DNA of 64,000 bases from Candidatus Bathyarchaeota archaeon (GCA_963806535.1 CAWDYC010000011.1:128001-192000); one strand, 5' to 3'. Counted from the stretch's first letter, positions 2,127-48,192 are shown. The notes: generated from the sequence alone by a model not told the origin. Translations and numbers: made by a program.

Positions 2127-2195
2127 ATTTATTCATTATTACTCTAGGAACTCTAAAGATAAAAATATTCAATCCCAAAAAAATGGAGACGTGGT

Positions 2196-3488
2196 TTACG
2201 TCTGCTTTTTCCCTTGGATGATTTCGAGGAAGGCTTCGATTCTTGTTTTTATCTGCTCGGAATCGCCCATAGCATAATCCGTTTCAATCTTAAGCATAGG
2301 TAAATCTTGAGCTTTCAAAGCTCGCTCAACTTTTACTCCTTCAACATTGTAGTCATGACAGTTCTGAAGTGTGTAATATATTACACCTTCTGCTTTGAAT
2401 TGCTTAGCAAGCTTAGTTACGCTTTCTAGTCTTTTATCGTTAGGTGTGAAGCAAGCGCAGGGAATCTGGCTGTATTTCTCTACTATAGCCCAAAGCAAAT
2501 CCTCTAAGCTTTCACCTTTCGGCTCAACCAAATCTGTAAAGTACCGTGTGCCTATGCAACTTTCTTCAACAACCACTGAAGCACCAGCGGTTTGAGCTAT
2601 GCTGTGGACTTTCCAATTGGGAATTGCCATAGGGCAGCCTGAAATCATTAGTCTTGGAGCATCTTTGTTTGTAACGCCTTCACCTTTCCGCACACGCTCG
2701 TCGAGTTCATCACAGAGCTCATTCACTTTTGCTGTGAACCGTTTTACGTCATCGTTGAAGCTGATTTGGAAAATAAGCAATGCATCTAAGCCGCTTATTG
2801 GTGATGGATTATTTTCCCGTAAATCAGACAAACGCTTCAGCGCTCTGCGTTTGCTGTTTATTAATTCAATGGATTCTTTTAGTTTTTCAGCAGTTATCTT
2901 GTTCCCTGTAAGCTCTTCTAATTTAGCTTGAAAATCCTCCAGCTCTTTAAACCAGAAAGCTTTGCCCTTTGCAGTGTATGGCTTGTGGGGAATTTCTAAG
3001 ACGTAAGTTGGGATAAGCTCGTTGAGGAGTTCATAAACTTTCTTTTTGCCGTCGCATGTTGTTTCTCCAACCACCAAATCACTAGACTGGAAATATGGGC
3101 ATGTCCGGTTTAGTTTGAAGCCGTAGAATGATTTAACCAAGGGACATAGGTTTCGGGGTAAAACTGCTTCTGCGTCTGGAACGGAAAAGTCTGCGCCGCC
3201 GCATAAACCCACCATTGTAGCATTTGCAGCGTAAGCAAGTTCCTCTGGTGCGTAAATGCAGAAAGCTCCAACGACCTTGTTTCCTGCTGCTCTTTGATCG
3301 TTGAGTTCTTTGATTCTTAAGCCGTGGATTTCTGAGACGACGAAGTCAAAGTAACCCATGCCTTTTGGCCTATTTTTTTGGGATAAAAATACAGCGGTGT
3401 AGTATTGACCTAGAATGTTTAAGAGTTGGTTATGTTTTTCGAGGTCCATTCCGAGGTTTTTCCACATTGGGACATATTTTTCTGCCAT
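2196..3488 (-). CDS. Double-cubane-cluster anaerobic reductase (2-hydroxyacyl-CoA dehydratase D family)
   Basis: Motifs GAFCIYAPEEL, GLCGG, PRNLCPLVKS, CPYF, ETTCDGKKK, SGCP, EESCIG, IPCACFTPN, QNCH, KIETDY...TRIEAF, plus N-terminal W--LGMDLEKH and YFDFVVSEIHG. Confidence 0.85.
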   Translation of the reverse strand: MAEKYVPMWKNLGMDLEKHNQLLNILGQYYTAVFLSQKNRPKGMGYFDFVVSEIHGLRIKELNDQRAAGNKVVGAFCIYAPEELAYAANATMVGLCGGADFSVPDAEAVLPRNLCPLVKSFYGFKLNRTCPYFQSSDLVVGETTCDGKKKVYELLNELIPTYVLEIPHKPYTAKGKAFWFKELEDFQAKLEELTGNKITAEKLKESIELINSKRRALKRLSDLRENNPSPISGLDALLIFQISFNDDVKRFTAKVNELCDELDERVRKGEGVTNKDAPRLMISGCPMAIPNWKVHSIAQTAGASVVVEESCIGTRYFTDLVEPKGESLEDLLWAIVEKYSQIPCACFTPNDKRLESVTKLAKQFKAEGVIYYTLQNCHDYNVEGVKVERALKAQDLPMLKIETDYAMGDSEQIKTRIEAFLEIIQGKKQT

Positions 3489-28296: not shown

Positions 28297-29451
28297 TTAG
28301 GTCGACTTGTTTTCTTGTTCTGTTTCCTTGGCCGACGTCTCGTTTGTTAATTCCTGCTTATCAATTGGCGAGTTTCGGTCGATCGATAGCTCACTTGATG
28401 TGCCGACAATTGGTCTGTTAGAAGTTTCAGGGAAAATATTTTTTCGTCTTTTTCGCAAATCCAGAATCAAGATTATTATGCTTGACGTGGCTCCTACTGC
28501 GACAGCGCCATAGGCTACTTCATGAGCCGCGTTATAACTCAATATAAAAAACATGGAGAATATGCTAGACCCAAAAAAGTTAGTTGCAATACCCAGAGCG
28601 TAAAATATTAAACCAAATGCTACAATCAATGCAATTAGCGATTTTCGTCTCTGATGCATAGCCTCAAATAGAGGGCGCTTTCTAGAGGCGGTTTTCAGGG
28701 GCTGGTCGCCTATGGTCTGTCTTACGCTTTTGTTGTCCGTGAACGCTTTCTGGCGGGGGCTGAACGCTTTCTTGTTATTGTGCTCCTTGATTATCATGCC
28801 ATCCCGCATCTCAAACACTCTACTAGCCATGCTTGCAATTGATGGGTCATGAGTAACAACAATGACTGTTGCGCCCTCATGGTTCGATAGGTCTCGGAGC
28901 GCGTGCACAACTTCTTTGCCTGTTTTAGAGTCTAAGTCGCCTGTAGGCTCATCTGCCAAAACTATGGAAGGCTTATTTGCGAGGGCTCTGACAATGGCTA
29001 CGCGTTGCTGTTCTCCACCGCTTAGTTCATCAGGTCTATGATGCAGGCGGTCGCCTAACCCAACCATTTTCAGCAGCTCTCGTGCCCTGTTTTCCCGCTC
29101 TTTTGTTGGCACCCCCGCTATTAGCATGGGTAATTCAACGTTTTCAAACGCTGACAAGACAGGAATCAAATTATAAAATTGAAAGATGAAGCCGATGGTG
29201 CTTCGTCGAAGCTTGGTTAGATCCTTCTCTTTTAGAAGGGTGAGGTCTATTCCGTCAACGTAGATTTTGCCTTTGCTTGGTTTATCTAAAACACCGATTA
29301 AGTTAAGCAGGGTTGTTTTGCCTGACCCTGAAGGACCCATAAAAGCCACAAACTCGCCCTTCTTTAACTCCAAGTTGACTCCTTTTAAGGCATGAACCTT
29401 GTTTTCTCCAAGCCTGTAAGTTTTTTCAACTTCAACAACTTTAACGGACAA
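28297..29451 (-). CDS. ABC transporter ATP-binding protein (LolD/MacB type) with C-terminal TM extension
   Basis: GPSGSGKT, LSGGEQQR, ADEPTGDLD, VTH. Confidence 0.9.
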   Translation of the reverse strand: MSVKVVEVEKTYRLGENKVHALKGVNLELKKGEFVAFMGPSGSGKTTLLNLIGVLDKPSKGKIYVDGIDLTLLKEKDLTKLRRSTIGFIFQFYNLIPVLSAFENVELPMLIAGVPTKERENRARELLKMVGLGDRLHHRPDELSGGEQQRVAIVRALANKPSIVLADEPTGDLDSKTGKEVVHALRDLSNHEGATVIVVTHDPSIASMASRVFEMRDGMIIKEHNNKKAFSPRQKAFTDNKSVRQTIGDQPLKTASRKRPLFEAMHQRRKSLIALIVAFGLIFYALGIATNFFGSSIFSMFFILSYNAAHEVAYGAVAVGATSSIIILILDLRKRRKNIFPETSNRPIVGTSSELSIDRNSPIDKQELTNETSAKETEQENKST

Positions 29452-29939: not shown

Positions 29940-32670
29940 TTATTGCCTAATTGAGTCAACAATGTTTTGTTTTGAAGCTCTGTTAGCGGGGTAAACTGCG
30001 CTAATCACTGCGGTTAAAAGTGCAAGGAACAAGCGTAATTGCCATAGCGTCGAAGGGTATTATGAATGCCATTGGGAAACCTGCCACACGCATGTAGCTG
30101 ACTGTGACTCTGTGGAACATTAAGCCAACAGTTATGCCCATGGCGAAACCGACGACTCCGAGAAATGTTGCTTCACCGATTATTGACGTTACCACTTGGG
30201 ATTTGCTCATGCCTTGAGACCTGTATATTCCAATTTCTCGTCGGCGCTCAGCAACGTTCATTATCATTATTGCAGCTACGCCTATTCCAGCGTTTAAAAC
30301 TGCAAAGGCAACAACTGGAGTATAGAATGTAGAATATTTGGTCAATTGAGCTTTTTACACGTTGGACCGCGTCATTGTAGGTTGTTATGCTTAGCTTGTA
30401 CTCGTTTCCGTAGGAATCTTGTATGCTATTTTTGGTTTGGTCAATGTTTGTGTTCGCGTCAACTTTTACGAAGAACAGGTTAGCTTTGTCGTTGTAGTCG
30501 TTTGATGAGTTGGGAATGTCTCGTTGAGGTTGTTGTAAGAAATGTATGATGCTTCAGAGAGCATAAAGTTGCCAAACGACATTATGTCAAGCCAAGCACC
30601 CTGTGCTATGCCAACGACGGTGAAGTTTTTCCAAGCTAAAACTGGGACAGTGTAATTGTATGGAATGCGTGCCATATTGGGTTTGGTATTGTCCTGTGCG
30701 GTTTTCGTAGTTAAGTAGCGGATTTTGACTTCATCCCCGACCGACGACGTTAAGCGATTTAGCCAGACGGCGAAGTCAAGATAATTGTGTCAGAATCGTT
30801 TAACTTTCTCAAAAACGTTTGATGGTGTGTCGTCGCTAAAAGTCATAGACATAACTTTGGGGTAAGAGGCTGGGTCAATCGCAAGCACTGTTGAGGAGGA
30901 ATTTATCGGCGAAGAAGACGCGTCATTTTGGATTATGGTTTGGTCAGGAACCACAAGAAGCGGCGTGGTAGCGTTTACTGCGCAATATTTGTGATGTTAT
31001 CGGTGAAGGATTTTGGAATCATGTTGTCAGACATAACTGTCAAATCTGAGCTTGAAAAAGAACGAATTACATTCTCTAACTCCGGCGACTGTGCCAATCT
31101 GTGCTCCACTCATAACAACGACTAAACTCAACGACATGCCAATGAGCGCAAAACAAATGGTGCTTCTAAGCAAGTTGCGCTCGACGTTTCGGGAAATGAT
31201 TTTTCTGGTTTTGCCAAAACCAAACAGGCTTCGTTCTATTACTGGACCGCCACTTCTTAGCAAGCCAGCCGCAAGCAATGTCACGCCAAGCATAGCTATT
31301 GGGGCAAGCGCTGATACCACGTACAAGCCAATGCCGTACTGCGAGAATATAGTCATACCATACAAAGATGAAGGCGCCAAAAATTGTCAGCGGCAACCCG
31401 ACGAGGATAAGTTTTAGGGCGGTTCTCTGTTTGCCTGGCTTTCTCATCGATGGACGTAGCGCGTTGATTATGTCTGTTCTGCATGCTGACAGCGATGGGA
31501 AAAGTCCGCCAATCATTACCGTTAACAAGCCAGCTGCCGCACCCAAAATCAGATGCTGTATGGTTGTTGGAGGAAAAGAAAACTTGAAGGTGATGCCCGG
31601 CGAGAAGGGCTGGAAAATTTTTGAAGTTAAATAACGGAAAATGTCTGTTACAAATAATCCTGAAACAAGCCCTATGGCTACGCCGATTAATCCAAGAATT
31701 AGGCTTTCTGAGAAGAATATCCAAAAAACCTGTCGTGTAGAAGCACCTTGTGAGCGTAATATGCCGATTTCATGTGTGCGTTCGCCAATGTTCATGTACA
31801 TGGTGTTTAAAACGATAACTATGGCAACGCAAAGCGCCATTACTGACATGATTTGCAAGCCGCTCTGTAAGCCTGACGGTTGCTCTGCTTACAATGTTGA
31901 GCAGGCTTTCTTTTACTGGGTTAACGATGTAGTCGCTGCCTAACCTGCTGTTAAGGTCGTTTACTACGTGTGCTTGTTTGCTTTGAATCTGTGAGCTTTA
32001 TGCTTATTGAGTTAATTTGGTCTGTGTAGTTTAGCATTGTTTGAGCTTTTGTTAAGTCAACGTAGATTCTGTATCCAGTGTAGCCTTGGCCAAATACGCC
32101 GCCGTATTGGTTTTCAAACTGGCTGGAATGGTAAAGGCCTACAACTTTTAAGGGTGTAATTTTCTGATTCGAAAGTTGGGAAGGAGCCGGTTTCAACATT
32201 GACTATTCAGTCTTTGGCCTATGGTAAAGTTTAGTCTATCATCTACTACCGCATCTGAACTGTTAATTGGCAGCTGTATTTGCCCAGTGATGTTTGTGGC
32301 TGAAGAATCGACGTAATCAAAATCTGAAGGTGGTGTTAACACCAACTAACTGTAGTGCTAACCCAATCCGAACGGCTTCAGAAATGTTGACTTGACCACT
32401 TAATCTTCCATAATAATCTGCAACACCGCTAGTTTGGTTTACTGTGATAAGAATGGTTTGGTTGAAAGGCAAATTCAAGCCTGACCTGATGCTTACATCA
32501 ACGTTTCCTATTGCCTGATTAACTGTAACTCCAAATTGGTCATAGACGCTGTCAAAGGCAATGTTTACTCCAACAATAAGTGTAACACCTAAGATGACGG
32601 CAAGAATGGTTAAGGAATTGCGGAGTTTTCGCTTAGGTATATTCCTAAACGCTATTGAAGTAAAAGACAA
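29940..32670 (-). CDS. FtsX/MacB-like ABC permease, two-repeat (heavily frameshifted)
   Basis: RNIPKRKLRNSLT, ERTHEIGILRSQGAS, ERRREIGIYRSQGMS and C-terminal YPANRASKQNIVDSIRQ, spread over many ORF pieces. Confidence 0.85.
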
Positions 32671-36110: not shown

Positions 36111-36197
36111 GCGGGATTGCCCTAGCCTGGTAGGGGGCAGGCCTGCTAAGTCTGTGGTCGAAAGGCCGCGTGGGTTCAAATCCCACATCCCGCGCCA
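36111..36197 (+). tRNA. tRNA-Ser(GCT), encoded CCA
   Basis: Acceptor GCGGGAT/ATCCCGC, D-loop AGCCTGGTA, anticodon stem CAGGC/GTCTG with loop CT-GCT-AA, long variable arm, T arm GTGGG-TTCAAAT-CCCAC, discriminator G. TTTAAAAA box upstream. Confidence 0.93.
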
Positions 36198-36421
36198 TTT
36201 CCAAATTCAGCTGACTATTACCGTTAATTTTAGAAAATGAGCCTAAATTTTTGCCCGAAATAATGCTGTACCCCCTACGAGCTACGGTTTGAAGCCACGC
36301 TAACCCGTTCACAGACTTTTGGGGCTGAGCCCGGTTCAGGAATTGAACAACCGCAATTTAGTCTTAAATATAAGAACGAGCAACATGGAAACTATCAGCA
36401 ACCTGGCCCTGTGATCCAGAA

Positions 36422-37422
36422 ATGACCAACAACGAAAACTTGACGGCAAAAGCTGGAAATCCCAATTCAGCCAACGAGCCGATAGGCCGAAAGAGCATTG
36501 TGACAGTGAATCATCTTCGCAAGCAATATGGCACAACAGTCGCAGTCGACGACGTCTCGTTCTCCATTACCGAAGGCGAGGTTTTTGGCATCATAGGACC
36601 TAACGGAGCTGGTAAGACAACCACGGTTGAATGTATTTCAGGGCTTCGTGTTCCAGACTCGGGTTCCGCAACTGTTTATGACCTTAATCCCAGAGACGAC
36701 CGTGAGGAACTGCGTAAATGCGTTGGAGTCCAACTCCAAGAAAGCTCATTACCTCCACGTATCAAGGTCGGGGAGGCTCTTGAACTCTTTGCATCTTTCT
36801 ATCCAGATCCTGTTAATCCAAAGGATTTACTTGAGTCGCTTGGAATTGCTCAAAAACGTAATGCCAAATTCAAACAACTGTCCGGAGGTCAAAAACAGCG
36901 ACTTTCAATCGCGCTAGCACTTATTGGAAATCCAAAGATTGCCATTTTAGATGAACTTACCACTGGGCTTGACCCGGAAGCAAGACGTGAGACTTGGGAA
37001 CTTATAGAGCGCATTAGGGATCGAGGCGTGACAGTGATTCTTGTAACGCATTACATGGATGAAGCCGAAAGACTGTGTGACCGAGTCGCTTTGATTAATC
37101 ATGGGAAAGTAATTGCACTTGACACCCCGCAGCTCTTGCCGCAAACGAAGGTGGCGGCGTGCGGATGCAGTTTGTGCCTTCAGGACCTGTGGATGACAAG
37201 GTTCTGACTGCCTTGCCAGGTGTAACTTCGGTTGAACACAGGGGAAATCGGATCATTGTTGCCGGCTCCGGCGACTTGACTACCCGCGTGCTTTATGCGT
37301 TACTCAAGATGGGAGTGAATGCGTCAGATGTTCAGGTGAAAAGCGGCAATCTGGAGGACGCGTTCGTCAAACTCACTCAAACCGACGATAAAACCATAAA
37401 AGACGAGGTGGGGAAGCAATGA
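36422..37422 (+). CDS. ABC-2 (DrrA-like) exporter ATP-binding protein (frameshift near 37130)
   Basis: GPNGAGKT, LSGGQ, LDELTTGLD; C-terminal NLEDAFV in ORF 37159. Confidence 0.9.
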
Positions 37423-38195
37423 GTACACAAGATTCTGAAGTCACAGTTCAAAGATCCCGCAAGGCTTTCTGGGAACTTGTCAAGGTTGAGGGAAAACTCG
37501 CTTTGAGAGAGCCAGTTGGCGTAATATTCGGCATAGGGCTTCCTGTTTTCTTGCTGATTATATTTGGTAGCATTCCTGCATTCAGAAATACTGTTCCGGG
37601 CACGACGTTATCCGCTTTCGAAGTTTACATCCCGATTCTTATGGTAACTGTGCTGATATTTATCGGACTATTTGGCTTACCCATTCCAATCGTTCGTGAC
37701 CGTGAGATTGGTTGGCTAAGGCGAATCTCCACCACACCCGTGTCACCGACCAAGCTATTGGCTGCGCAGGTGACAATCAATCTTATTCTTGCGGGGATAG
37801 CATTCACAATACTTACGGTTGGAAGTGTCTTTTTCTTCGGAGTGAAGGGGTCGTTTGAGATTCCTGGATTCGTTCTTTCGATCGTGCTGGCAACGATTGC
37901 ACTGTTTTCTTTGGGAGTGCTTATTGCTGCGGTCGCGCCGTCCCAGGGGGTTGGTACAGGTATAGCGCAGGGGCTTCTATATCCGCTGTTATTCTTCGCA
38001 GGAATTTACGTTCCCATGCAGTTCCTTCCAGGCTACCTGCAAACAATAAGCAATTTCACTCCAGTCGGAGCTGCAGTTCAGGCTCTAGGAAGCTCAATGC
38101 AGGGGACATTTCCTTCTCCCATATCATTGCTCGTGATGGCCGCTTACTCAGTTTTCTTCGGCTTCATCGCGGTTCGCTACTTCAAGTGGGAGTAA
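37419..38195 (+). CDS. ABC-2 exporter permease
   Basis: Six TM segments, REIGWLRR..TTP, ends FKWE. Confidence 0.9.
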   Translation: MSTQDSEVTVQRSRKAFWELVKVEGKLALREPVGVIFGIGLPVFLLIIFGSIPAFRNTVPGTTLSAFEVYIPILMVTVLIFIGLFGLPIPIVRDREIGWLRRISTTPVSPTKLLAAQVTINLILAGIAFTILTVGSVFFFGVKGSFEIPGFVLSIVLATIALFSLGVLIAAVAPSQGVGTGIAQGLLYPLLFFAGIYVPMQFLPGYLQTISNFTPVGAAVQALGSSMQGTFPSPISLLVMAAYSVFFGFIAVRYFKWE

Positions 38196-38270
38196 CGCGA
38201 TGTCCCTCAGGCAGGAGTCGCAACCCGCAGAAAGATTCAAGCTTAAACCGAAAAGCAACTAACTTTTTCG

Positions 38271-38312
38271 TGTGGAATTTAAACGTGGGTGTAAATCTAA
38301 CATCCCGCGCTA
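38271..38312 (+). repeat. att-like site: arm motif plus degenerate tRNA 3' end
   Basis: TGTGGAATTTAAAC-GTGGGTGTAAATCTAACATCCCGCGCTA versus tRNA GTGGGTTCAAATCCCACATCCCGCGCCA. Confidence 0.85.
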
Positions 38313-38322
38313 CAAAATATTC

Positions 38323-39189
38323 TCAATTTAATCGTTGCTTATGCACTGACATGTACCTTTTGATAAAATAGGTTACAAAGCCTTCTTCTGGTCTTTGCAG
38401 GGCTTTATAATAGGATTTTCTGTTCCTATATTCTATTATAAGCATGGGATAACTGTTCTTCCATAAGATATAATTCATCAGTAGCCTACCAATCCTGCCA
38501 TTTCCATCTCCGAAAGGATGAATCTTCTCAAAAATGTAGTGTGCTCTAGCAGCAACCTCGACCGAGTTTAGTTTTGACTCGTTTATGAACAAGTTGAGTT
38601 GTCTTATGAGGTATTCTACTTTTTTCCAATCTGGCGCAACGTAAGGTCCTACCCTGACTGAATAATTCCTAAATTGCCCTGCAATGTCAGGTTTTGTTTC
38701 TCTGAATATATTTGCGTGCCATTTCAAGAGAAGATGCTCTGACAAATTCTCGTCAGTCTTAAGCATTTGCAAAAAAACTGCTGCATGAGATTCAGTTTCC
38801 CGAATGTCTCGGATTGACTTACTAGGTGCTATTTTATCCTCTAGTATTTGCCTTGCTTCTTCAAGAGTTATAGTTGAGCCTTCGATGGCGTTCGTGTTAT
38901 AGGTAAAAGCTATCGCTATTTCCTGCAACTCTTTTTCTTTAGCTGACTGGGGAACTTTTGTCCATTCTGTTTGAAAATTGTTTTTGATTTTTTCAAGTTT
39001 TGCATTTAACTCTTTATGAGGTTCATGCATGAGTTTGGCTTTGATTTCTTCAATGTTTTCAGGGATTTTTTTGCCAAGATAGAGTTCTTTTGTGACGACC
39101 TTTCCGTCTTTTCTAAAAGAATGCTGCAGATAGAAATACTCGGATTTTCCTTTTCTGCGTTTGATTGTTCGCATAAGTATTTTTACCAT
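38323..39189 (-). CDS. Fic family protein
   Basis: HPFGDGNGRIGR catalytic motif; TNAIEG inhibitory-type motif. Confidence 0.93.
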   Translation of the reverse strand: MVKILMRTIKRRKGKSEYFYLQHSFRKDGKVVTKELYLGKKIPENIEEIKAKLMHEPHKELNAKLEKIKNNFQTEWTKVPQSAKEKELQEIAIAFTYNTNAIEGSTITLEEARQILEDKIAPSKSIRDIRETESHAAVFLQMLKTDENLSEHLLLKWHANIFRETKPDIAGQFRNYSVRVGPYVAPDWKKVEYLIRQLNLFINESKLNSVEVAARAHYIFEKIHPFGDGNGRIGRLLMNYILWKNSYPMLIIEYRNRKSYYKALQRPEEGFVTYFIKRYMSVHKQRLN

Positions 39190-39257
39190 TACAAACAATA
39201 TAAATATTTCATTTTTACTTGTATTGTAATGGTAATTACGTGGCAATTTGCCATCAA

Positions 39258-39340
39258 GTGCTATTCCAAGCCTGGTAGTCGGCAGCATGCTAAGTCTGTG
39301 GTCAAAAAGCCGCATGGGTTCAAATCTCACACCCCACGCT
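39258..39340 (+). pseudogene. Degenerate near-full-length copy of tRNA-Ser(GCT)
   Basis: AGCCTGGTAG..GGCAG-CATGCTAAGTCTGTGGTCAAAAAGCCGCATGGGTTCAAATCTCACACCCCACGC aligns with 36111-36197; acceptor and anticodon stems are disrupted. Confidence 0.88.
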
Positions 39341-39566
39341 TTGCTCTTTTTGGGAAATCAGGCTTGGTCATTAGCTATTTTAGCAAAATAAGCCAGAAAA
39401 ACATCGATTCATAATTCAGCTCGCGCAATAATTAAGATGATGCCGCCGTAACCTCCAAACATTCCAAACCGCGCGCGCTGTATAGGGATTATCTCTATAT
39501 TTTGTTTATTCTTAAAAAAAGAAAAAGTATCGTTGCTAGTTAAGATGAGGGCTTAGTTGTAAAGTC

Positions 39567-39848
39567 TTATCCGAATTTCGCTAGCACTTGCCTTCCGAAG
39601 TCGGTTATTTCGACGGTGTTGAAATCGTAGGGGCCATATCTTTTTGTCGGCTCAGGTATGTCGATGAGCTTGGATTTTGATAGGTGCCGCACTGCGTCGT
39701 TTAGGGCTTCAGGCATCAAACCTGTTTTTTTGTGTAAGAGGTCTACCGTCACCAAGAGACCTTTCTCAAATTGAGAAAGGGCTACAAGAACTCTTTTGGC
39801 TGACGGGTCAATCATGTCGAAATCTTCTTTTTCAAAATCTTCATCCAT
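39567..39848 (-). CDS. Small winged-helix-like hypothetical protein
   Basis: LHKKTGLMPEALNDAVRHL..SKLI...VEITDFGR pattern. Confidence 0.6.
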   Translation of the reverse strand: MDEDFEKEDFDMIDPSAKRVLVALSQFEKGLLVTVDLLHKKTGLMPEALNDAVRHLSKSKLIDIPEPTKRYGPYDFNTVEITDFGRQVLAKFG

Positions 39849-40007
39849 TCCAAAACACCACTCGTAACTAGGACAGTCTCGCATAAAAACAATTTGAAAA
39901 AACCAAATGGAAAATAGCCCACAAAAAATGGGCTTTGTTGAGCGAAAAATGTAAGTATTTATTCAAGCCATCCATACTTAGCTCCTCGAAGAGGGTGTTT
40001 TCTCTTG

Positions 40008-40155
40008 CGTGAAATTTAAACGTGAATGTAAATCCAACACCCCGCGCCATCTCCAAATTCAGCCTACTTCTTAACCTATTTTCAATTAACAAGATCAAAT
40101 TATCGTACGAAATTATGCTTTACCGCCTAAGGTATAGTGTTTAAATTCCACATGA
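40008..40155 (+). repeat. Complete attP-like junction: arm motif, tRNA-3' core, ~100-bp arm ending in the inverted motif
   Basis: CGTGAAATTTAAAC-GTGAATGTAAATCCAACACCCCGCGCCA-TCTCCAAATTCAGC...GTTTAAATTCCACATGA; the downstream part aligns with 36198-36300. Confidence 0.85.
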
Positions 40156-40307
40156 ACTAATTGGGATACAGGATTAGAAATGGAATGTGCGTTCAGTATT
40201 TTAAGTGAAATGGGATTTGTAGCTGTAATTGTGTAACCACATACCTTGAAATATCGAGCCATCGGTAACAATCAATTACTGTTTAGTAGCGATAAAACGA
40301 TGATAAA

Positions 40308-40905
40308 ATGAGAAAATTAGCTGTACTGACTTTCGTAACCCTCGACGGTATCATGCAGGCTCCAGGAGGACCAAAAGAGGATTACCGGAGATTTCAAATA
40401 CGGTGGATGGTCGGTTGGTTACTGGGACGAATTTTTGGGAAGGGTTATGGAGAAACAAATGGCAAACCCATTTGATCTCTTGCTTGGTCGCAAAGCCTAT
40501 GAGCTATTCGCGGCTTACTGGCCAAATGCAAAAGAACCAGGAGCCTATAGATTAAATGCAGCCAAAAAATATGTTATCTCCACAACCCTTAGCAAACTCT
40601 CTTGGAATAATTCTACTCTAATCACAGGCGACGCTGTGGACGAAATTGAGAAACTCAAGGACCAGGACGGCCCTGAGATACAGGTTCATGGAAGTTCCAA
40701 CCTTATCCAAACACTCCTAAAAAACGATCTAATTGACGAATTCCGTCTAAAGATATTTCCAATTACGATTGGAGCAGGAAAACGCCTTTTTGGAGATGGC
40801 ACTATACCATCCTCATTCCGACTCCTCGAAAGCCAAACTTCTACTACTGGCGTAATAGTGGTCACATTCACAAGAGACGGAAGCATAAAAACGGGTTCCT
40901 TTTAG
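40308..40905 (+). CDS. Dihydrofolate reductase / RibD C-terminal family protein (frameshift near 40385)
   Basis: MRKLAVLTFVTLDGIMQAPGGP, LLGRKAY, HGS..L...LIDE, GAGKRLF. Confidence 0.88.
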
Positions 40906-41045
40906 CCTCCATGCAATGAGACAATTCTAATAGATCAAAGAAATGACGTTAAAAACGCCTAAATATTTTAATTTTCAACCAAGGGATGCGGCGCGAAAAG
41001 TTTTTAGGAAAAGCTCGGCAAATATTCTTTTGTTGTTTTTGGTTT

Positions 41046-41426
41046 ATGAAAAAGGATTTTGAGTCGATTGATGAGTACATCTGTTCTTTTCCTAAGAACG
41101 TTCAAACTGTTTTAGAACAAATAAGGCAAGCAATCAAGGTCGCTGCACCCAAAGCAGAAGAAGCAATTAGTTACAATATGCCAATATTCAAGCTGAATGG
41201 CAATTTGGTCTGGTTTGGAGCATTCAAGAATCATATAGGTTTCTATCCGCGGAAGTCGGCTATCGAGGAATTCAAAGAAAAACTGTCAGGTTATGAAGTA
41301 AGCAAAGTCCAGGGTACCGTCAAATTTCCATTGGACAAGCCAATGCCATTAGATTTGATAAAGGAAATGGTAAAGTTCAGAGTAAAGGAAAACCTGAAAG
41401 AAAAGAGCAGTTTCAGATATTCATAA
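41046..41426 (+). CDS. DUF1801/YdhG family protein
   Basis: IDEYI..FP, AP.AEEAISYNMP, HIGFYP. Confidence 0.85.
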   Translation: MKKDFESIDEYICSFPKNVQTVLEQIRQAIKVAAPKAEEAISYNMPIFKLNGNLVWFGAFKNHIGFYPRKSAIEEFKEKLSGYEVSKVQGTVKFPLDKPMPLDLIKEMVKFRVKENLKEKSSFRYS

Positions 41427-41548
41427 TTTCAAATTAGGAGTACCCGAACGTAGTTCGGGAGCCTTTGCCGAATGCGTGCGCTCTTGGAATCATGGAGCCT
41501 GATCGAATCCAAGTGTACATGATGACGAACAGCCGCAGTAGATTTTCC

Positions 41549-41977
41549 TCAGCCACCTGAGGACGTGTTAAGGGCCACGGCGGCGCGAATGAGGGTCTTG
41601 AAAGCGCCCTCGTCAATCTTGTCGCCTTCATGGATGTCGATGGCGCGCCTGACGGTCCCGGGCTGGTTGAAAAGGTGAGATGGGTCCTTTAGCGAAGCGC
41701 CCTTGAAGAAAGTGAGCTTAACGTGATCTTTGTATGTCTCGTCTGTGCAAATGCCGCCGTTGTGGGACCAGACGGGCGTCCCAGGATTGGTTGGCTTTAC
41801 CCACTTCCACTCTTCAACAATCTCCGGATCAGCTTCTTTGATGAGCCGGCGCACTTCGGCTAACGTTTCTCCACGCCAGTCGCCTAGCTCCTTGATTCTT
41901 GCATCTATCATTCGAGATGCAGATTCGAATCCTTGGGAACCACTTTTTCCCTTTGAATCTTGCTTCTTGGTCATCAT
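41549..41977 (-). CDS. DUF1801 family protein
   Basis: LGDWRGETL..VR.LI.EADP.IVEEWKW, KLTFFKGASL.DP; visibly GC-richer than its flanks. Confidence 0.85.
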   Translation of the reverse strand: MMTKKQDSKGKSGSQGFESASRMIDARIKELGDWRGETLAEVRRLIKEADPEIVEEWKWVKPTNPGTPVWSHNGGICTDETYKDHVKLTFFKGASLKDPSHLFNQPGTVRRAIDIHEGDKIDEGAFKTLIRAAVALNTSSGG

Positions 41978-41987
41978 ATCACAGCTT

Positions 41988-42359
41988 CTATGATTGTAGA
42001 ATGTTCCAGACGTTGCCATCAGGATCGTTGACGCTGAAGAATCTGCCTCCGGGCGGATATGGCATGATCTCGCTGTTTGGCTTGATGCCCTTTGCTTTAA
42101 TTGCCTTGTATGCTGCCTCAACATCCGGTGTTGAAAGATTGAAAGTTCTTTTTGTATCAAAATTTTTTTCTTCGGATATAAAATCAAGTGCAACATATGT
42201 GCCGCCACCAGGAGGAACAACAAAGACTCCGCGGTTTCCTTTTCCCCACATGGTGTCTTGAGTTGCTTCAAAACCTAATACATCAGTATAGAACGCTTTA
42301 GCTTTATCCATATCGCGTATAAGCAAATGGGTCAGAATTATTTTATCTACAATTTTCAT
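41988..42359 (-). CDS. VOC/glyoxalase family protein
   Basis: DMDKAKAFYTDVLGF...DPDGN. Confidence 0.9.
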   Translation of the reverse strand: MKIVDKIILTHLLIRDMDKAKAFYTDVLGFEATQDTMWGKGNRGVFVVPPGGGTYVALDFISEEKNFDTKRTFNLSTPDVEAAYKAIKAKGIKPNSEIMPYPPGGRFFSVNDPDGNVWNILQS

Positions 42360-42907
42360 AAAAATCGCCTTGTTATAAAATCTAGCATAGCCTGGCATAA
42401 ATTTTTTTCGCCCTAATAGTCTCCGTGCTTTTGGGCAATTACACCAAATATACTCGCAATTTTCTTCAGTCCGAAACCTTTCAGTTATGCTGTGGGCTAT
42501 CCGCATGAACCAATGATTGACTCGAAGCGATAACAGGTTTTGAACCCATTTGAGACTGAGTAAAAACTAATTTCAACTCCAGAAAATTGCTAGTTTTGTA
42601 CAAATAATGTTGGCCTAAAAAACGATAGAATACATATTTAAAGCAATTTTCTGAGCTCGATTTGAGTTTTTACAGAGTCTGATTTCGATCTGGGGACTCA
42701 ACGGCTCCAAATCATGGTATAGTTCAAGGATTATTGTAGTGTTCCTAGGTCGCATTCTTAAAACAAAATACTATTTTACTTTTGAACGACCAATGTGTAT
42801 TACAGATTTTATCGCAACACTTATGTCTATAAATTATGGATGAACACTAAACTTCAATAATTTTCTCGTTTAGAAGAACTTATAGTATCCACAATCAAAC
42901 TCGTATC

Positions 42908-43010
42908 TCATGTGGAATTTAAACGTGGGTGTAAACCTAACATCTCACGTAAAATTCTCATTTTGCCAATTCAGTCTCAATTAGTGTTTATTTCAGCAAA
43001 TGATGCTCAG
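42908..43010 (+). repeat. att-like site: arm motif, degenerate tRNA 3' end and partial downstream arm
   Basis: TCATGTGGAATTTAAAC-GTGGGTGTAAACCTAACATCTCACG, then CCAATTCAG...TATTTCAGCAAATGA resembling 36201-36242. Confidence 0.82.
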
Positions 43011-43089: not shown

Positions 43090-45360
43090 TCAAGATTGAA
43101 CTAGGTAGTTGACATCGCCATTTTTTCTCGTCTTTGGAATTGTTATCACGAATTTAACACCTTTTCCAGATTCACCAATTTCCTCAATTTCCCATCCGTA
43201 GACTTCAATCATTTTCTTGGATAAGAACAAGCCAAATCCTGTGCTGCCTTCGGTGCTGAAGCCTTCTTTGAAAAGCTGTGTTTTATTCTCAGCCGATATT
43301 CCGACACCGTCATCTTCATAGAACAATTTCAAGTGGGACTCATCTTCTTCAAAGTGCACTTTTATCTTTGTTGCAGTCTTTCCGTATTTGGCAGTGTTGT
43401 CAATGAAATTATAAAACATTTGTCGCAGGAAAGAATCTGATACAACATTAAGACTATGGCAACCGTTAATAATGGTGGGAAGCGAGCATGAAAAGAGATT
43501 TTTGGCTTCATCAAATACACTCCCCACGTTAACAAAAACTAGTTTTTCAACACCTAACTGCTCATATACCCTGGCAGAATCTAAAATTCTCACGATCTGA
43601 TTAACGGATAAACTAATCTTGTCAAGATCATTAGCTATGTCCGTTTGGTCTTTGTGTTTCTTCTTCATCAAATACGAGTATCCATTTATCGCGCTTAGTT
43701 TATTGCGAACATCATGCCTCGTTAACTCTCCAACAAACTTGAGTTTTTCATTCATCATTTCCAAGTGCTTGTGATTTTGCTGTAAGCGTTCTTCAATCTT
43801 TTTTAAAGCAGATATATCAACAAAGTTTTCAACAAGCAAAGTTCTTCCATTGTGTTTTGTTTTCACAACGCTTTTGATTACTGGGTGTCTTTCACCATTC
43901 GCAGTAATAATCACTCTTTCTGCTTTATCTATAGTCTGCGCCAAATCCGTGATTGGGCACTTTCCAATTTCTGCTGGGCAAATGAATTTGTGACAAACTT
44001 TGCCTACAACTTCCTCTTTAGTTGCATCGATTAAACCTAATGCAGCTGGGTTTGTGTCAATGATTTCGTGAGTTTCGCTATCCACTACAATAATTCCTGA
44101 AAGTACAGAATTCAGCAGTGTTTCGAAGTATATCTTTATGTTCTCAAGATCTTTTCTGGCTTCTTTTCGTTCAGTTATGTCGATTACTGATCCTTCCAAA
44201 ATTTGCTGTTCTGGACAAACCTTAATCGACCCAATGCAAGTTCTAATCTCGCCCTGCTTGTTTAACAACTTGCATTCAAAACCACTCAACCGACCATTGC
44301 TTTGAAGCAAGCCTAGCATTTCTTGTCTCTGAAGAGGGTCTGCCCAATGAAACACCGAAGGGTTACCCTGCATCTCTTCCCGAGTATGACCAAAAATCTT
44401 GAGAAACTGCTCATTGCAGTCAAGAATCTCCGACCCATCTATCTTTGAAACAAACATTCCAGCTTCGGCATTGTCAAATATGCTCCGATATTTTGACTCA
44501 CTTTCAATCAGTTTCATTTCAATGCTTTTGCGTTGTGTAATATCAAGGAAAACGCCTTGTACGACTTTCTGCCCGTTATACTCGACGAGGCTACTACAAA
44601 CTTCTATCCAAGTCACTGAGCCATTCTTTCTTACTCCCTTAAATTCATAAGCTGATTCCTGTTTTACCCCTGCTAATCGCTGACTTAACCGGTGAAGGAA
44701 AGCCTCTCTATCATCAGGATGGATCAAATTTGCAATTTCAGCTGGTGAAAAAGAGAGCAGTTCTTGACTTGAAAAGCCAGTCATTCTTTCCATTGCATTG
44801 TTGGCAAAAACAATATGCGGTGGAGGACCCTGAACAATAATTACTCCTTGAGACATGTCTTCTATCAGTCTGCGGTACTTTTGTTCGGAATCAAAAAGTA
44901 ACTTCTTCGCACGTTTGTGGTCTAGTGTTTTGTGAAGAGCATCTGACAACTCGCCGTAAACTGTTTCCGGGTCGCCGTTCTTGTTGATGTAAGCGTCTGA
45001 ACCAAGATTTAGAGCTTTTATCGCCACCTCTTCTCTGCCTTTTCCAGTGAATAAGATAAATGGAATTTCATTCTTCGCTTCTCTCAGTTCTTTTAAGAAT
45101 TCTAACCCGCTCTTTTGGGGCATCTCATAATCAGAAATAATCACATCATAATTGCAAGATTTCAGTTTCTTGAAGGCGTCTTGAACACAGCTGGAATGGT
45201 CAATTTCGAAATTGCCCATATCAATTAAAATCTTCTTTGTAATCTCCTGAATAGAGACGTCATCATCAACATGTAAAATATGAATAAGATCAGACTTACC
45301 TGAAGAAACTAAATCTGTTAAGGTAACCGTAATTTGCTGTGCTTGATTTTTCGTTTGCAT
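43090..45360 (-). CDS. Hybrid sensor histidine kinase (REC-PAS-PAS-PAS-HisKA-HATPase)
   Basis: HVDDD/SDYEMP receiver, three PAS repeats, RHDVRN, EDDGVG, GFGL. Confidence 0.93.
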   Translation of the reverse strand: MQTKNQAQQITVTLTDLVSSGKSDLIHILHVDDDVSIQEITKKILIDMGNFEIDHSSCVQDAFKKLKSCNYDVIISDYEMPQKSGLEFLKELREAKNEIPFILFTGKGREEVAIKALNLGSDAYINKNGDPETVYGELSDALHKTLDHKRAKKLLFDSEQKYRRLIEDMSQGVIIVQGPPPHIVFANNAMERMTGFSSQELLSFSPAEIANLIHPDDREAFLHRLSQRLAGVKQESAYEFKGVRKNGSVTWIEVCSSLVEYNGQKVVQGVFLDITQRKSIEMKLIESESKYRSIFDNAEAGMFVSKIDGSEILDCNEQFLKIFGHTREEMQGNPSVFHWADPLQRQEMLGLLQSNGRLSGFECKLLNKQGEIRTCIGSIKVCPEQQILEGSVIDITERKEARKDLENIKIYFETLLNSVLSGIIVVDSETHEIIDTNPAALGLIDATKEEVVGKVCHKFICPAEIGKCPITDLAQTIDKAERVIITANGERHPVIKSVVKTKHNGRTLLVENFVDISALKKIEERLQQNHKHLEMMNEKLKFVGELTRHDVRNKLSAINGYSYLMKKKHKDQTDIANDLDKISLSVNQIVRILDSARVYEQLGVEKLVFVNVGSVFDEAKNLFSCSLPTIINGCHSLNVVSDSFLRQMFYNFIDNTAKYGKTATKIKVHFEEDESHLKLFYEDDGVGISAENKTQLFKEGFSTEGSTGFGLFLSKKMIEVYGWEIEEIGESGKGVKFVITIPKTRKNGDVNYLVQS

Positions 45361-45964
45361 TGATTTGTTCTCAGATTCACATCTCTCTCTAATGAATTCG
45401 TTATAAAGGCGTTATGAATCCAAAATATTGAGCGATAGATTCTTTGTCAAAATGTATGATACGGTTATATTTGAAGTGCCAGGTCAAAAAACTTCTCTCT
45501 TTCATCTATTCCTTGAAATGATATCGATTTGAAAAAACAATTGCCCTTTTTTGTTCCGTAACCTGGTGCTTCAAGTTCTCTTGTTTTATCTCTGCTTCCA
45601 TTCTTTTTTTCCTTTGTTCTTCGTTTGGTTTGTTTTTTTTGTTTCGCTTTTCAGTTTGTTTTTGGCTTTAGCTTTCATTTTGATAATCCTCCTTCAATAT
45701 CAAATTGTATTGCATCCTTATTCGGTTTGCCTTCCTTATACTCAGTTTATTCACGGCATAAGTCCATACTCTTAAGAAATTTGGTCTTTCAAGCCAAAAC
45801 GGGTAATAAACCATGGCATTTACGCACTTAAATACATATACTTATAAGTGTCTATGCACATATATGTTTATATAAATAAGTGAACTGAAAGCGAAAAAAT
45901 GATGCAACAGCACACAAGCATTCGTAACTCACTTATTTTCAAAAACAAAAACAAGTGAATAAAA

Positions 45965-46105
45965 TTGGGCCGCATAAACGTTGACATCTCAGACGAATTA
46001 GAAAAACAGTTAAGATTGAAAACTGTGGAGCAATTTGGCGGCAAAAAAGGCGACTTATCGAAAGCTGTCCAAGAAGCAGTAAAAACATGGATCAATACAA
46101 AATAG
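45965..46105 (+). CDS. Ribbon-helix-helix (CopG-like) protein, 46 aa
   Basis: Hand-translated from TTG as MGRINVDISDELEKQLRLKTVEQFGGKKGDLSKAVQEAVKTWINTK; not in ORF track. Confidence 0.8.
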   Translation: MGRINVDISDELEKQLRLKTVEQFGGKKGDLSKAVQEAVKTWINTK

Positions 46106-46341
46106 TAAAGTCGCCTCCTCAAAATACTGATAACTACCTTGTATGAAGCCTAAGTAAAGGCAGGGCAAGCCAGTTAGCCTGGAACATCCTTGTATGAGGG
46201 TTAAGGGCAATCTAGCTGGAAAAATCCCTTTTGCAAAATAGACAGAAGTAAAGTTGCAGCTTTAACTTTATTACTTGCCCGCTCAGAAAAAAAATTCGAG
46301 ATTGTCTCGCAAATTAATAATAAGTAAATGGAGTCAAAAAA

Positions 46342-47313
46342 ATGAGTATAACCCAAATAATAACTGAAAAGGTACCAAAAATTGATCAGCACTTAGCTGA
46401 TAAATGCCCTGAATGTACAGGCAAAAATTTAGTTCATGATTATGATTCAGGTGAAACAATTTGTGGTGACTGTGGTCTTGTTTTGTATGAGCAGATGATG
46501 GATAAAGGACCCGAATGGCGCGCTTTCACTCACGAAGAAAAAGCCTCAAGAAGCCGCGTCGGAATGCCCACATCATATTCAATTTCTGACAAGGGATTAT
46601 CAACAACCATTAGCCAAGTTGATAGAGACGCATTCGGAAGAAAACTGCCGATCTCCACTAGATTACAAATGTGGCGCCTCAGAAAATGGCAAATACGCAG
46701 CCGAGTACACTCATCCACCGACCGAAACCTTGCCCAAGCGATGGCTGAAATTGAACGTTTATCAAGCAAAGTCTCCATCTCTCCACCAATAAAAGAGAAA
46801 GCCGCCGTTGCCTACAGAAAAGCACTAGACAAAGGTTTAGTCCGAGGAAGATCAATCAACTCAATCGCCGCAGCAGCTCTTTATGTTGCTTGCCGCAAAA
46901 GCGGATCACCTAGAACACTTAACGAAATTGCCGAGGCAAGTCTTGTTGATAAAAAGGATGTTGCCAGATGCTATAGACTGTTGCTGCAAGAACTCGATTT
47001 TCACATGCCAATTTCTGACCCACTAACTTATGTTTCAAAAATTGCCGAAAAAACTGGAATATCAGGCAAAACACAGGGCACTGCCATAGGTATACTCAGA
47101 GAAGCTAGACAAAAGCGGGTCTCTTCGGGAAAAGACCCCATGGGCTTAGCAGCCGCCGCACTCTACATTGCATGCTTAAAAAACGCCGAAAAAGCAACAC
47201 AAAAAGACATCGCAGAAGCAGCCGGAGTCACAGAAGTCACAGTCAGAAACAGATACAAGGACCTACAGAGGCGGCTGAACCTCGAAGTACCTGATCGAAA
47301 AGAAGCTTTTTAG
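46342..47313 (+). CDS. tfb: Transcription initiation factor IIB
   Basis: CPEC...CGDCG zinc ribbon, GPEWRAF B-reader, two cyclin repeats, GVTEVTVRNRY. Confidence 0.96.
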   Translation: MSITQIITEKVPKIDQHLADKCPECTGKNLVHDYDSGETICGDCGLVLYEQMMDKGPEWRAFTHEEKASRSRVGMPTSYSISDKGLSTTISQVDRDAFGRKLPISTRLQMWRLRKWQIRSRVHSSTDRNLAQAMAEIERLSSKVSISPPIKEKAAVAYRKALDKGLVRGRSINSIAAAALYVACRKSGSPRTLNEIAEASLVDKKDVARCYRLLLQELDFHMPISDPLTYVSKIAEKTGISGKTQGTAIGILREARQKRVSSGKDPMGLAAAALYIACLKNAEKATQKDIAEAAGVTEVTVRNRYKDLQRRLNLEVPDRKEAF

Positions 47314-47366
47314 TTTTCCTTGCTTAGTATTTTCTTTTTTTATTTTAGAGATGAGATATTTAACTC

Positions 47367-48017
47367 ATGCCCAATTATTCCAAACAACCATTCTTGGCGG
47401 CAACTGACGAAGAATATACCATGCTAATCGAGGTCAGTGAAGAATTTGAGAAACAAAAAATCGACAAAACAGCTCGCGAAAAATCTGGAAAGCCAACGGA
47501 AATAGTCCTACGCAATCACCTCCTAAAGAAAAGCCTTAACCTTTCAATGATCCCAGAAGTCACAATTCAAGGATCTAAGATCAAAAATGATCTGCTTCTC
47601 TTAAGGAGCGGCGTGGACCCAAACCAAAAAAACTTTCCGTCTAATAACGTGAAGATGGTAATAGAGATTAAAAACAACGCAGTCGCCGGCAAAACAATGG
47701 AAAACGGAAAACGAGAAGACCAAAACAAGGTCCTACGCGCCAAATTCAATGAACTCGAAGGAACTACCAATGTTAGGAATTTTGCCCTTATCGTTCTTTC
47801 AGAAAGTCTACTCCCGCCAAAAACTCCTCACAAATGGCGATTCAAAGAAGAAGTGATAGACAAAGAAAACTGCAAAGTCTTTACCCTAGTTGCTCGTCAG
47901 CTCTACCCTCCTGGCGGACTCTATATTAAGTCCAACATAGTAGAAATGCTTCAAAATAATCAAATGAAAAAAACCGGAGAATTTCAACAGCTGATAAATT
48001 ACCTTAAATACTTGTAA
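47367..48017 (+). CDS. Hypothetical protein, PD-(D/E)xK nuclease-like
   Basis: SGKPTE...NDLLLL...VIEIK arrangement. Confidence 0.55.
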   Translation: MPNYSKQPFLAATDEEYTMLIEVSEEFEKQKIDKTAREKSGKPTEIVLRNHLLKKSLNLSMIPEVTIQGSKIKNDLLLLRSGVDPNQKNFPSNNVKMVIEIKNNAVAGKTMENGKREDQNKVLRAKFNELEGTTNVRNFALIVLSESLLPPKTPHKWRFKEEVIDKENCKVFTLVARQLYPPGGLYIKSNIVEMLQNNQMKKTGEFQQLINYLKYL

Positions 48018-48192
48018 CCCTAAAAGGAACGTTTGTGGTCGCTTGGTTCTTTTTCGTTTGGAACTTAAGCGTGTGTGTACTCCTAGTATCCGGTGTCATA
48101 TCTAAATTCGGCTTATTTTTCAGTTATTTTAGTAATAATACTGATATTGTTGCAAAAATTTGTTAATTAGCCTCATCAAACTTTTTTTAATT

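Follow-up and report, generated by a model that had tools for sequence, protein, structure and literature searches.

Two described systems, the accretion of cis-mobilizable elements (CIMEs) at tRNA genes and the tycheposon islands of Prochlorococcus, are close precedents for the locus reported here, an array of small gene blocks behind the tRNA-Ser(GCT) gene of a peat-soil archaeon, Candidatus Bathyarchaeota (GCA_963806535.1; 2.95 Mb in 12 contigs, 41% G+C). The window, by which we mean the whole stretch of 64,000 nucleotides analyzed, lies within contig C11 (CAWDYC010000011.1:128001-192000). CIMEs are decayed elements that keep their left and right attachment (att) sites, attL and attR, and accrete with newcomers (PMC5704250). 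Like the CIMEs of streptococci and other bacteria, the array consists of att-bounded units without an integrase or transfer genes of their own, and both stack in tandem at a tRNA 3' end as newcomers arrive (PMC5704250). Its sites copy the target 3' end plus CCA, most of its units lack an integrase, and integrase-bearing relatives use the same site, as is characteristic of CIMEs. For CIMEs, movement requires the integrase of a related element (PMC5704250); for the array, we infer mobilization of that kind. Unlike CIMEs, the array has an archaeal host, its units are far smaller (median 1.6 kb) and many to an array, and the element-borne arm is one 49-nucleotide sequence kept genus-wide, in versions for two tRNAs.

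Tycheposon islands resemble the array in being tRNA-anchored variable islands that arise by repeated tyrosine-recombinase integration, with elements separated by partial tRNA copies, niche cargo and decayed remnants (bioRxiv 10.1101/2020.12.28.424599). Plain tRNA fragments do not separate the units of the array, however; the separator is a derived site that includes two 13-mers and an arm. In Archaea, tandem integration at one tRNA locus and later loss of the integrase have been described (PMC8371274, PMC6563490), and the array shares with the Sulfolobus spindle-shaped virus (SSV)-type and pNOB8-type elements archaeal tyrosine integrases that target tRNA genes (PMC8371274, PMC6563490, PMC7253208). 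According to these papers, the att site of SSV-type elements is located inside the integrase gene. Integrons and clusters of attC sites lacking integron integrases (CALINs) have in common with the array small, promoter-independent cargo units with one kind of site each, and many of the arrays have no adjoining integrase; integrons reported from archaeal metagenome-assembled genomes (MAGs) are mostly CALINs (bioRxiv 10.1101/2022.02.06.479319). The array differs from integrons in having no IntI, attC hairpin, attI or common orientation, a site derived from tRNA, and a tRNA gene as its anchor.

No description of such arrays in Bathyarchaeia was found in the literature searched, including PMC10848311 and PMC11697101 but not supplementary tables, nor was any account seen, for Archaea, of arrays in which many kilobase-sized modules lacking an integrase share one conserved site. 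What is new, within a kind of system already known, is an archaeal array of many very small modules that lack an integrase and share one conserved tRNA-derived site. With a probability of roughly 0.6, we read these as att-bounded modules accreted by a family of integrative elements that targets tRNA-Ser, largely fossil in the genome of the window. Below, G000 denotes that genome, other G numbers relatives of the same genus, and L numbers fetched loci or contigs.

A conserved site behind tRNA-Ser(GCT)

The array is anchored by the tRNA-Ser(GCT) gene (attB/attL) at 36111-36197 on the plus strand, predicted by ARAGORN as the only tRNA in the window, with CCA encoded, and matching the Rfam tRNA family at 54.9 bits. 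Behind it stand three copies, all in the same direction, of a derived site of about 49 nucleotides, laid out as the 13-mer GTGRAATTTAAAC, the 13-mer GTGRRTGTAAAYC and then the acceptor 3' strand of the tRNA with its CCA. Site c1 (38260-38312; 64.8 bits by nhmmer) reads TTTTTCGT GTGGAATTTAAAC GTGGGTGTAAATC TAAC ATCCCGCGC and is of the G type defined below; c3 (39997-40051; 56.4 bits) is of the A type and reads GTGAAATTTAAAC GTGAATGTAAATC; c4 (42900-42952; 51.9 bits) is again of the G type, its tail partly decayed to ATCTCACG. A copy that differs from these in kind, c2 (39266-39339, plus strand; found by repeat search and blastn), is a nearly whole fragment of tRNA-Ser, covering about positions 11-85 at 85-87% identity, without the 13-mer arm. 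Farther out, behind a gene for a 216-amino-acid protein, lies a degenerate site, c5 (48049-48102, plus strand; 15.1 bits, E 7e-4), followed by an arm like the type 1 described below.

The first-pass annotation of this DNA, made from the sequence alone, had proposed that four further copies of the tRNA end follow the gene in the same orientation and divide the DNA into blocks of about 2.1, 1.0, 0.7 and 2.9 kb. A repeat search matched these, with spacings of 2115, about 1030, about 710 and 2903 nucleotides, and returned one family at 36153-36194 (the tRNA), 38268-38309, 40005-40046 and 42908-42949. That three of the copies share departures from the tRNA (TGTAAA for TTCAAA, AACA for CACA) and an upstream motif, (T/C)GTG(G/A)AATTTAAAC, was likewise read directly in the sequence. 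Site c5 had been overlooked, as had an inverted perfect 17-mer at 40139-40155 that pairs with 42908-42924 in the repeat search, and the frameshifts of two cargo genes described below. Overall, the observation of the first-pass annotation is confirmed and enlarged, and its interpretation is supported in part. Because four of the six genomic occurrences of the 13-mer GTGGAATTTAAAC (at most one mismatch) and all four occurrences of the 25-nucleotide site core (at most four mismatches) fall at this locus, the repeats here go beyond chance. An assembly artefact, one of the refuting conditions named in the first-pass annotation, was rejected, since the same architecture is present in many independent assemblies, including single-contig genomes. 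The copies of the tRNA tail gave no match to the Rfam tRNA family, and no other Rfam family matched in the window; a small RNA or tRNA-like gene was accordingly rejected, the folds also being weak. Elsewhere in G000, ARAGORN reports a second 'tRNA-Ser(gct)' of 75 nucleotides without a long variable arm (contig C4, 66291-66365), which is probably another tRNA misread in its register.

A 31-nucleotide pattern built from c1, c3 and c4 was searched for in 120 genomes of the same genus, allowing up to three mismatches, and matched 100 times, in 50 of them. Its reversed control matched nowhere in the same 120, so that the copies do form a true site family, as had been supposed. Conservation in 61 distinct copies extends from -8 to +40, with the sequence TTTYTCGY GTGRAATTTAAAC GTGRRTGTAAAYC TAAC ATCCCGCGCCA; the second 13-mer resembles the T-arm of the tRNA, and after it come the acceptor 3' strand, the discriminator base and CCA. 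There are two co-varying types, one combining GTGG with GTGGG (G) and the other GTGA with GTGAA (A), the two features being concordant in 96 of 116 strong sites. The columns of the site are 84% identical in mean pairwise comparison, versus 72-76% for adjoining Fic coding sequence. An exact-pattern scan of one genome per species (185,579 species) yielded 34 stretches, of which 32 are titled Candidatus Bathyarchaeota or Bathyarchaeia. The Joint Genome Institute (JGI) metagenomes contained 69 contigs with a site match, and IMG/VR contained no exact match. A second short motif, GGTCCGGCTCAC, occurs upstream of about ten sites in different genomes, and in L059, L062, L064, L071, L080, L082, L041 and L054 it lies 20-60 nucleotides upstream of the site.

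In the stretches that were fetched, sites usually form same-direction arrays behind tRNA-Ser(GCT). Among the first 18 relatives fetched, nine have at least one site behind this tRNA and four more have plain partial tRNA copies. In a variant located behind tRNA-Leu(GAG), the site closes with the tail of that tRNA, CCTCCGCACCA. Of 116 strong sites, 44 have a tRNA upstream on the same strand in the same locus, and the tail of the site agrees with that tRNA in 43, which ties the sites to tRNA 3' ends as the first-pass annotation had claimed: 35 Ser-tailed sites stand behind tRNA-Ser(GCT) and one behind tRNA-Leu(GAG), whereas all eight Leu-tailed sites stand behind tRNA-Leu(GAG). The Ser and Leu versions show that the integrase family has been retargeted between tRNAs.

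Under the reading that we favor, the repeats would be recombination junctions at att sites, left by one family of integrative elements that targets the 3' end of tRNA-Ser(GCT) in a genus of Bathyarchaeia. The constant, element-borne part of the site would be the 13-mer GTGRAATTTAAAC together with the 13-mer that mimics the T-arm, and the remaining 11 nucleotides would copy the acceptor 3' strand and CCA of the tRNA. Since the constant and the tRNA-specific parts meet at the junction of T-stem and acceptor stem, strand exchange would probably take place within the 11-nucleotide tail.

Turnover of blocks and arms across the genus

Comparison of the relatives by tblastn, blastn and locus maps showed that the content behind the tRNA varies by species, from none to about 11 kb, and that the same blocks recur in other orders. 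A homologue of the gene for the 216-amino-acid protein (47367-48017), for example, comes directly after the tRNA in G008, has sites on both sides in G010 and is followed by a site in G023. Between the tRNA and this gene, G012 has only a block carrying a winged helix-turn-helix (wHTH)-like gene, and G000 has 11.2 kb. The ABC exporter pair that forms the first block in G000 recurs behind other blocks in G003 (88% nucleotide identity) and G090 (84%); in G003, an extra ABC-like block precedes this pair and a Fic gene, and in G105 that extra block is found in second place. Homologues of the Fic block occur in seven relatives at 67-80% nucleotide identity, with a long tRNA-Ser fragment upstream of the gene in all those seen, and five genomes have unrelated sequences on the left of the site that precedes Fic. 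In G012, G135, G116 and G106, the nucleotide identity of the wHTH block amounts to 88-91%, non-coding parts included, versus 80-84% for flanking genes, and in all four genomes the left edge of the homology is the site core, with four different sequences to its left. Blocks have thus been gained, lost and reshuffled between species downstream of tRNA-Ser(GCT), in content as well as in order.

Counted from core to core, with limits of 100 and 12,000 nucleotides, 95 non-redundant loci gave 93 intervals with a median of 1594 nucleotides. The first open reading frame (ORF) of at least 90 amino acids after the site runs in the same direction in 25 cases and in the opposite direction in 28, which gives no support to the site as the promoter of the next block.

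Small cargo blocks separated by one repeated site, together with the integrons and CALINs reported from archaeal MAGs (bioRxiv 10.1101/2022.02.06.479319), would suit a true integron or CALIN, in which an IntI-type integrase captures cassettes that bear attC hairpins. There is no IntI, however: with the TIGR02249 model, whose cut-off is 265 bits, the genome reaches 24 bits at best, on another contig. The sites copy a tRNA tail and lack attC-like hairpin folds. As single-stranded DNA, c1 on both strands and c3 with its arm fold no better than shuffled sequences (z -0.81, +0.57 and +1.83), and c4 (z -4.18) does so only by way of a short T-arm-like stem. Nor are the blocks co-oriented. With score, fold and orientation all against it, the integron was rejected, and we give this explanation next to no weight. 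The first-pass annotation was right that the sites are not based on attC, but its analogy with integrons in function fails on the orientation of the blocks, 25 against 28.

Many blocks open with an arm of 90-110 nucleotides, of which there are two sequence types, one starting TTTCCAAATTCAGC (type 1) and the other CTCCTTTTGCCAAAT (type 2), both closing in an inverted copy of the 13-mer. The arm stands directly behind the tRNA in G029, G010, G104, G089, G107 and G003, and in the window also behind c3. The latter (40052-40155, plus strand) is of 'P-prime type 1', ends in the inverted 13-mer within the 17-nucleotide perfect partner of 42908-42924, and is 77-84% alike to arms of G029. Behind the tRNA of the window, by sequence likeness, lies a degenerate arm of the same type (36198-36300, plus strand), from TTTCCAAATTCAGC to the decayed inverted 13-mer GGTTTGAAGCCAC, with 76-89% likeness to the arms that G029, G001 and G135 have in this position. 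An inverted 13-mer with at most two mismatches occurs 83-112 nucleotides after the core in 18 of 83 sequence windows, clustering at 83-89, 98-100 and 108-112 nucleotides, against 0-1 of 83 in each of three controls. Three 13-mers around a crossover region are the pattern expected of attP, where they may be binding sites for the integrase or an accessory protein. In a comparison of arm 13-mers with sites (n=10), the site of the block itself was the better match four times and that of the preceding block once, with five ties, too few to be used.

The arms also bear on the idea that the site is primarily regulatory or self-spreading, its likeness to tRNA being secondary, in which case it might be an archaeal promoter, a unit like a miniature inverted-repeat transposable element (MITE) of about 150 nucleotides with inverted ends of 13-17 nucleotides, or a small RNA. 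The 13-mer holds TTTAAA with purines before it, which presumably fit the consensus of the archaeal B recognition element (BRE) and TATA box; in L179, the inverted 13-mer lies about 90 nucleotides upstream of the start of an integrase gene; and the unit of site plus arm is bounded by inverted 13-mers. A self-spreading element would scatter, however, whereas 43 of 44 sites lie behind the tRNA that matches their own tail and in its direction. Moreover, the inverted partner is present at only 18 of the 83 cores, there is no target-site duplication at 40139 or 42924, ORFs follow the site in both directions, folds of three of the four stretches are no better than shuffles, and no Rfam family matches. 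A MITE or other transposon was rejected for the want of that duplication and for the confinement of the sites to tRNA-linked arrays, the inverted 13-17-mers notwithstanding. We regard a primarily regulatory or self-spreading site as very improbable.

Integrases of the site family and the origin of the array

The window contains no tyrosine or serine recombinase domain by PF00589, PF16795 or PF00239, which agrees with the first-pass annotation; the genome's matches to these models are on other contigs or outside the window. Five of the 93 intervals were flagged for an integrase, but because two of these only touch the edge of a neighboring gene, three intervals hold an integrase and 90 hold none. 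A relaxed search added short integrase stumps in three further loci. The tycheposons that were counted in the published work carried an integrase (bioRxiv 10.1101/2020.12.28.424599), unlike these 90 units.

The rare integrase-bearing members point to a single clade of tyrosine integrases adjoining the tRNA tail. In G101, a 7.2-kb element with small ORFs comes after tRNA-Ser and closes in an integrase (L242, 11131-12018), and integrase-less blocks and a site come next; the start of the integrase overlaps, on the opposite strand, a 24-nucleotide fragment identical to the tRNA tail of G101. In G129, the integrase (L243, 9860-10796) starts just after tRNA-Ser, and the 5.4-kb element closes in a decayed site. 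G002 has tRNA-Ser, a broken integrase, 3 kb and then a decayed site with a type-1 arm. The metagenome contig L179 brings together an integrase (2185-3077), a core, a type-1 arm with its 13-mer, a site and a homologue of the wHTH gene. In G016 (contig C6, on L211/L095), a 61%-identical integrase adjoins a fragment of tRNA-Arg(CCT). The integrases of the clade are 56-71% identical to each other, and the three that are intact score 55, 54 and 31 bits against Pfam Phage_integrase, above its cut-off of 27 bits. 'Integrase-free', as the array had been called, is therefore right for this array and its genome but wrong for the family, of which G101, G129, G002 and L179 carry the enzyme.

In G129, G002 and G016, the integrase follows the tRNA in the same direction, with the gene whole. 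In L179 and G101 it runs on the opposite strand and begins with a start codon that reads as the CCA end in reverse complement; only the start codon and about eight codons overlap the core. This would be at most a marginal form of the SSV-type arrangement, in which the att site is inside the gene.

The wider integrase family is found in 104 of the 120 genomes with one query and in 96 with another; because it is present in most genomes of the genus, its co-occurrence cannot link it to the presence of sites. Predicted viral contigs in IMG/VR carry integrases of the wider family, 35-42% identical, without the site. One such contig, L246, has an integrase 37% identical to that of L179 (328-1351) with a tRNA-Ser(GCT) gene directly after it. 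G000 itself has two stumps of clade integrases and one serine-recombinase stump, at 472533-472667 of contig C3, 51948-52079 of C5 and 229733-229969 of C11, all outside the window; one clade stump is 69% identical over 45 amino acids, and the other is 48-54% identical over 39-44 amino acids and lies 3.7 kb from tRNA-Arg(CCT).

By the accretion reading, a tyrosine integrase of this one clade would insert elements repeatedly at the tRNA, and each newcomer would displace older elements outward, leaving an array in one direction. Nearly all units would be small cargo modules without an integrase (median 1.6 kb), whose movement or reshuffling would depend entirely on the enzyme of a rare integrase-bearing relative. 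Such supply in trans is plausible. G000 has no assembled intact integrase of the clade, its array contains two broken cargo genes, and some of the sites have decayed, so that the array there would be mostly a fossil record.

Several observations weigh against this account. No pair of loci at least 93% identical, among 110 fetched, differs by a single block, so that mobilization in trans, as the first-pass annotation proposed it, was not observed; nor was an excision product found, the search being of relatives' contigs only. Genes do not invariably keep their arms, the ABC pair carrying an arm of type 1 in G000 but of type 2 in G003 and G090. In the ABC and wHTH blocks of G000, homology ends about 65 nucleotides before the right-hand site. 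Simple excision and insertion of cassettes predicts neither the exchange of arms nor this gap. Furthermore, the side of the core on which the integrase is found differs between members, the sites that close integrase-bearing elements are the most decayed (24 and 29 bits), and a close homologue of the clade (at least 56% identity) occurs in only four of the 120 genomes. G000 has only remote integrases (26% identity) besides the stumps, and because of this nothing can currently be shown to act there.

The test for excision in reads covered assembled contigs of relatives, with no run above 0.12 of the sampled words, and parts left uncovered carry no meaning. One metagenome contig joins 38305 to 39348, with 13 other letters between, and so lacks the Fic block precisely from c1 to the end of c2, the sole excision-like signal. 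Many metagenome contigs match only 38265-38310, at c1, and diverge on both sides. Joints from 38304 back to 36146 and from 38086 to 40003, whose intervening letters are unknown, were not used as evidence.

The same lack of a cognate integrase in G000, the frameshifted genes, the decay of some sites and arms, and the absence of any recent gain or loss found would be expected if the blocks were pure fossils, stumps of integrase-bearing elements after deletion, with passive sites, sharing by descent and homologous recombination, and no mobilization in trans. Tandem integration and later integrase loss are known in archaeal elements (PMC8371274), and the three further loci with integrase stumps fit as well. 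On the other hand, three loci are few beside 90 of 93 intervals that have no integrase gene. The best-kept sites (60-69 bits) flank integrase-less blocks, whereas those of integrase-bearing elements are the worst; sites are more alike (84%) than the adjoining Fic coding sequence (72-76%); and the wHTH block, non-coding parts included, is better conserved (88-91%) than the genes that flank it (80-84%). Purely passive fossils therefore seem to us an unlikely explanation.

Equally doubtful is an active, tRNA-anchored platform for gene capture, in which the tyrosine integrase of rare helper elements would capture, excise and reshuffle kilobase-sized modules without an integrase, an archaeal counterpart of the integron with an independent origin. 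Each module would then bear the 49-nucleotide site and the arm of about 100 nucleotides, with three copies of the 13-mer, in Ser and Leu and in G and A versions.

Cargo of the array and its meaning for Bathyarchaeia

The first block of the window (36422-38195, plus strand) encodes an ABC ATPase (Pfam ABC_tran), frameshifted into 36422-37207 and 37159-37422, and an ABC-2 permease (37419-38195; ABC2_membrane). The second (38323-39174, minus strand) is the Fic-domain gene (Pfam Fic, 77.8 bits); its ORF extends to 39330, with the ATG at 39174 as the likely start. A palindrome of 25 nucleotides lies just upstream of this likely start, at 39183-39235. The third block (39340-39930, minus strand), delimited by homology to blocks of relatives, has a 'P-prime type 2' arm and the 105-amino-acid wHTH-like gene (39567-39884), whose product matches Pfam MarR_2 at E 0.02 only, below threshold. 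The fourth (40309-42506, mixed strands) comprises, by Pfam, a RibD_C gene that is the second frameshifted cargo gene of the array after the ABC ATPase (ATG at 40309, ORF from 40435 to 40905, plus strand), two DUF1801 genes (40986-41426, plus; 41549-41980, minus) and a VOC/glyoxalase gene (41988-42506, minus). These assignments agree with the cargo named in the first-pass annotation (an ABC pair, Fic, a DHFR-like gene, two DUF1801 and VOC), except that the wHTH gene is sub-threshold. Between the VOC gene and c4, a 39-nucleotide inverted repeat (42553-42591 and 42642-42680) is 77% complementary, with a loop of 50 nucleotides.

The region at 43090-48017 is probably the last block or blocks of the array and contains, on mixed strands, a PAS/response-regulator histidine kinase (43090-45360, minus), a TFB (46342-47313, plus; Pfam) and the gene for the 216-amino-acid protein. 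A TFB gene and a TiaS gene adjoin the locus. Upstream of it, on the minus strand, there are two pieces of an FtsX permease (30001-30345 and 31166-31858), which may be split or duplicated, and an ABC ATPase (28297-29451). In relatives, the cargo includes flavodoxin, a Zn-dependent dehydrogenase and Kelch proteins.

To our knowledge, almost nothing is known of gene exchange among the abundant, uncultured Bathyarchaeia. The 49-nucleotide site is a sequence tag by which variable DNA can be recognized in no fewer than 50 species that belong to one genus, and the locus offers a candidate clade of integrases together with its target. It also yields a catalogue of travelling accessory genes: ABC exporters, Fic, flavodoxin, Zn-dependent dehydrogenase, Kelch, DUF1801, VOC and a RibD_C-type reductase. 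If mobilization in trans is true, Archaea would provide a second and independent route to small cassettes traded in the manner of integrons. If the modules are fossils, the order in which elements integrated at one tRNA in the past can still be read from the arrays.

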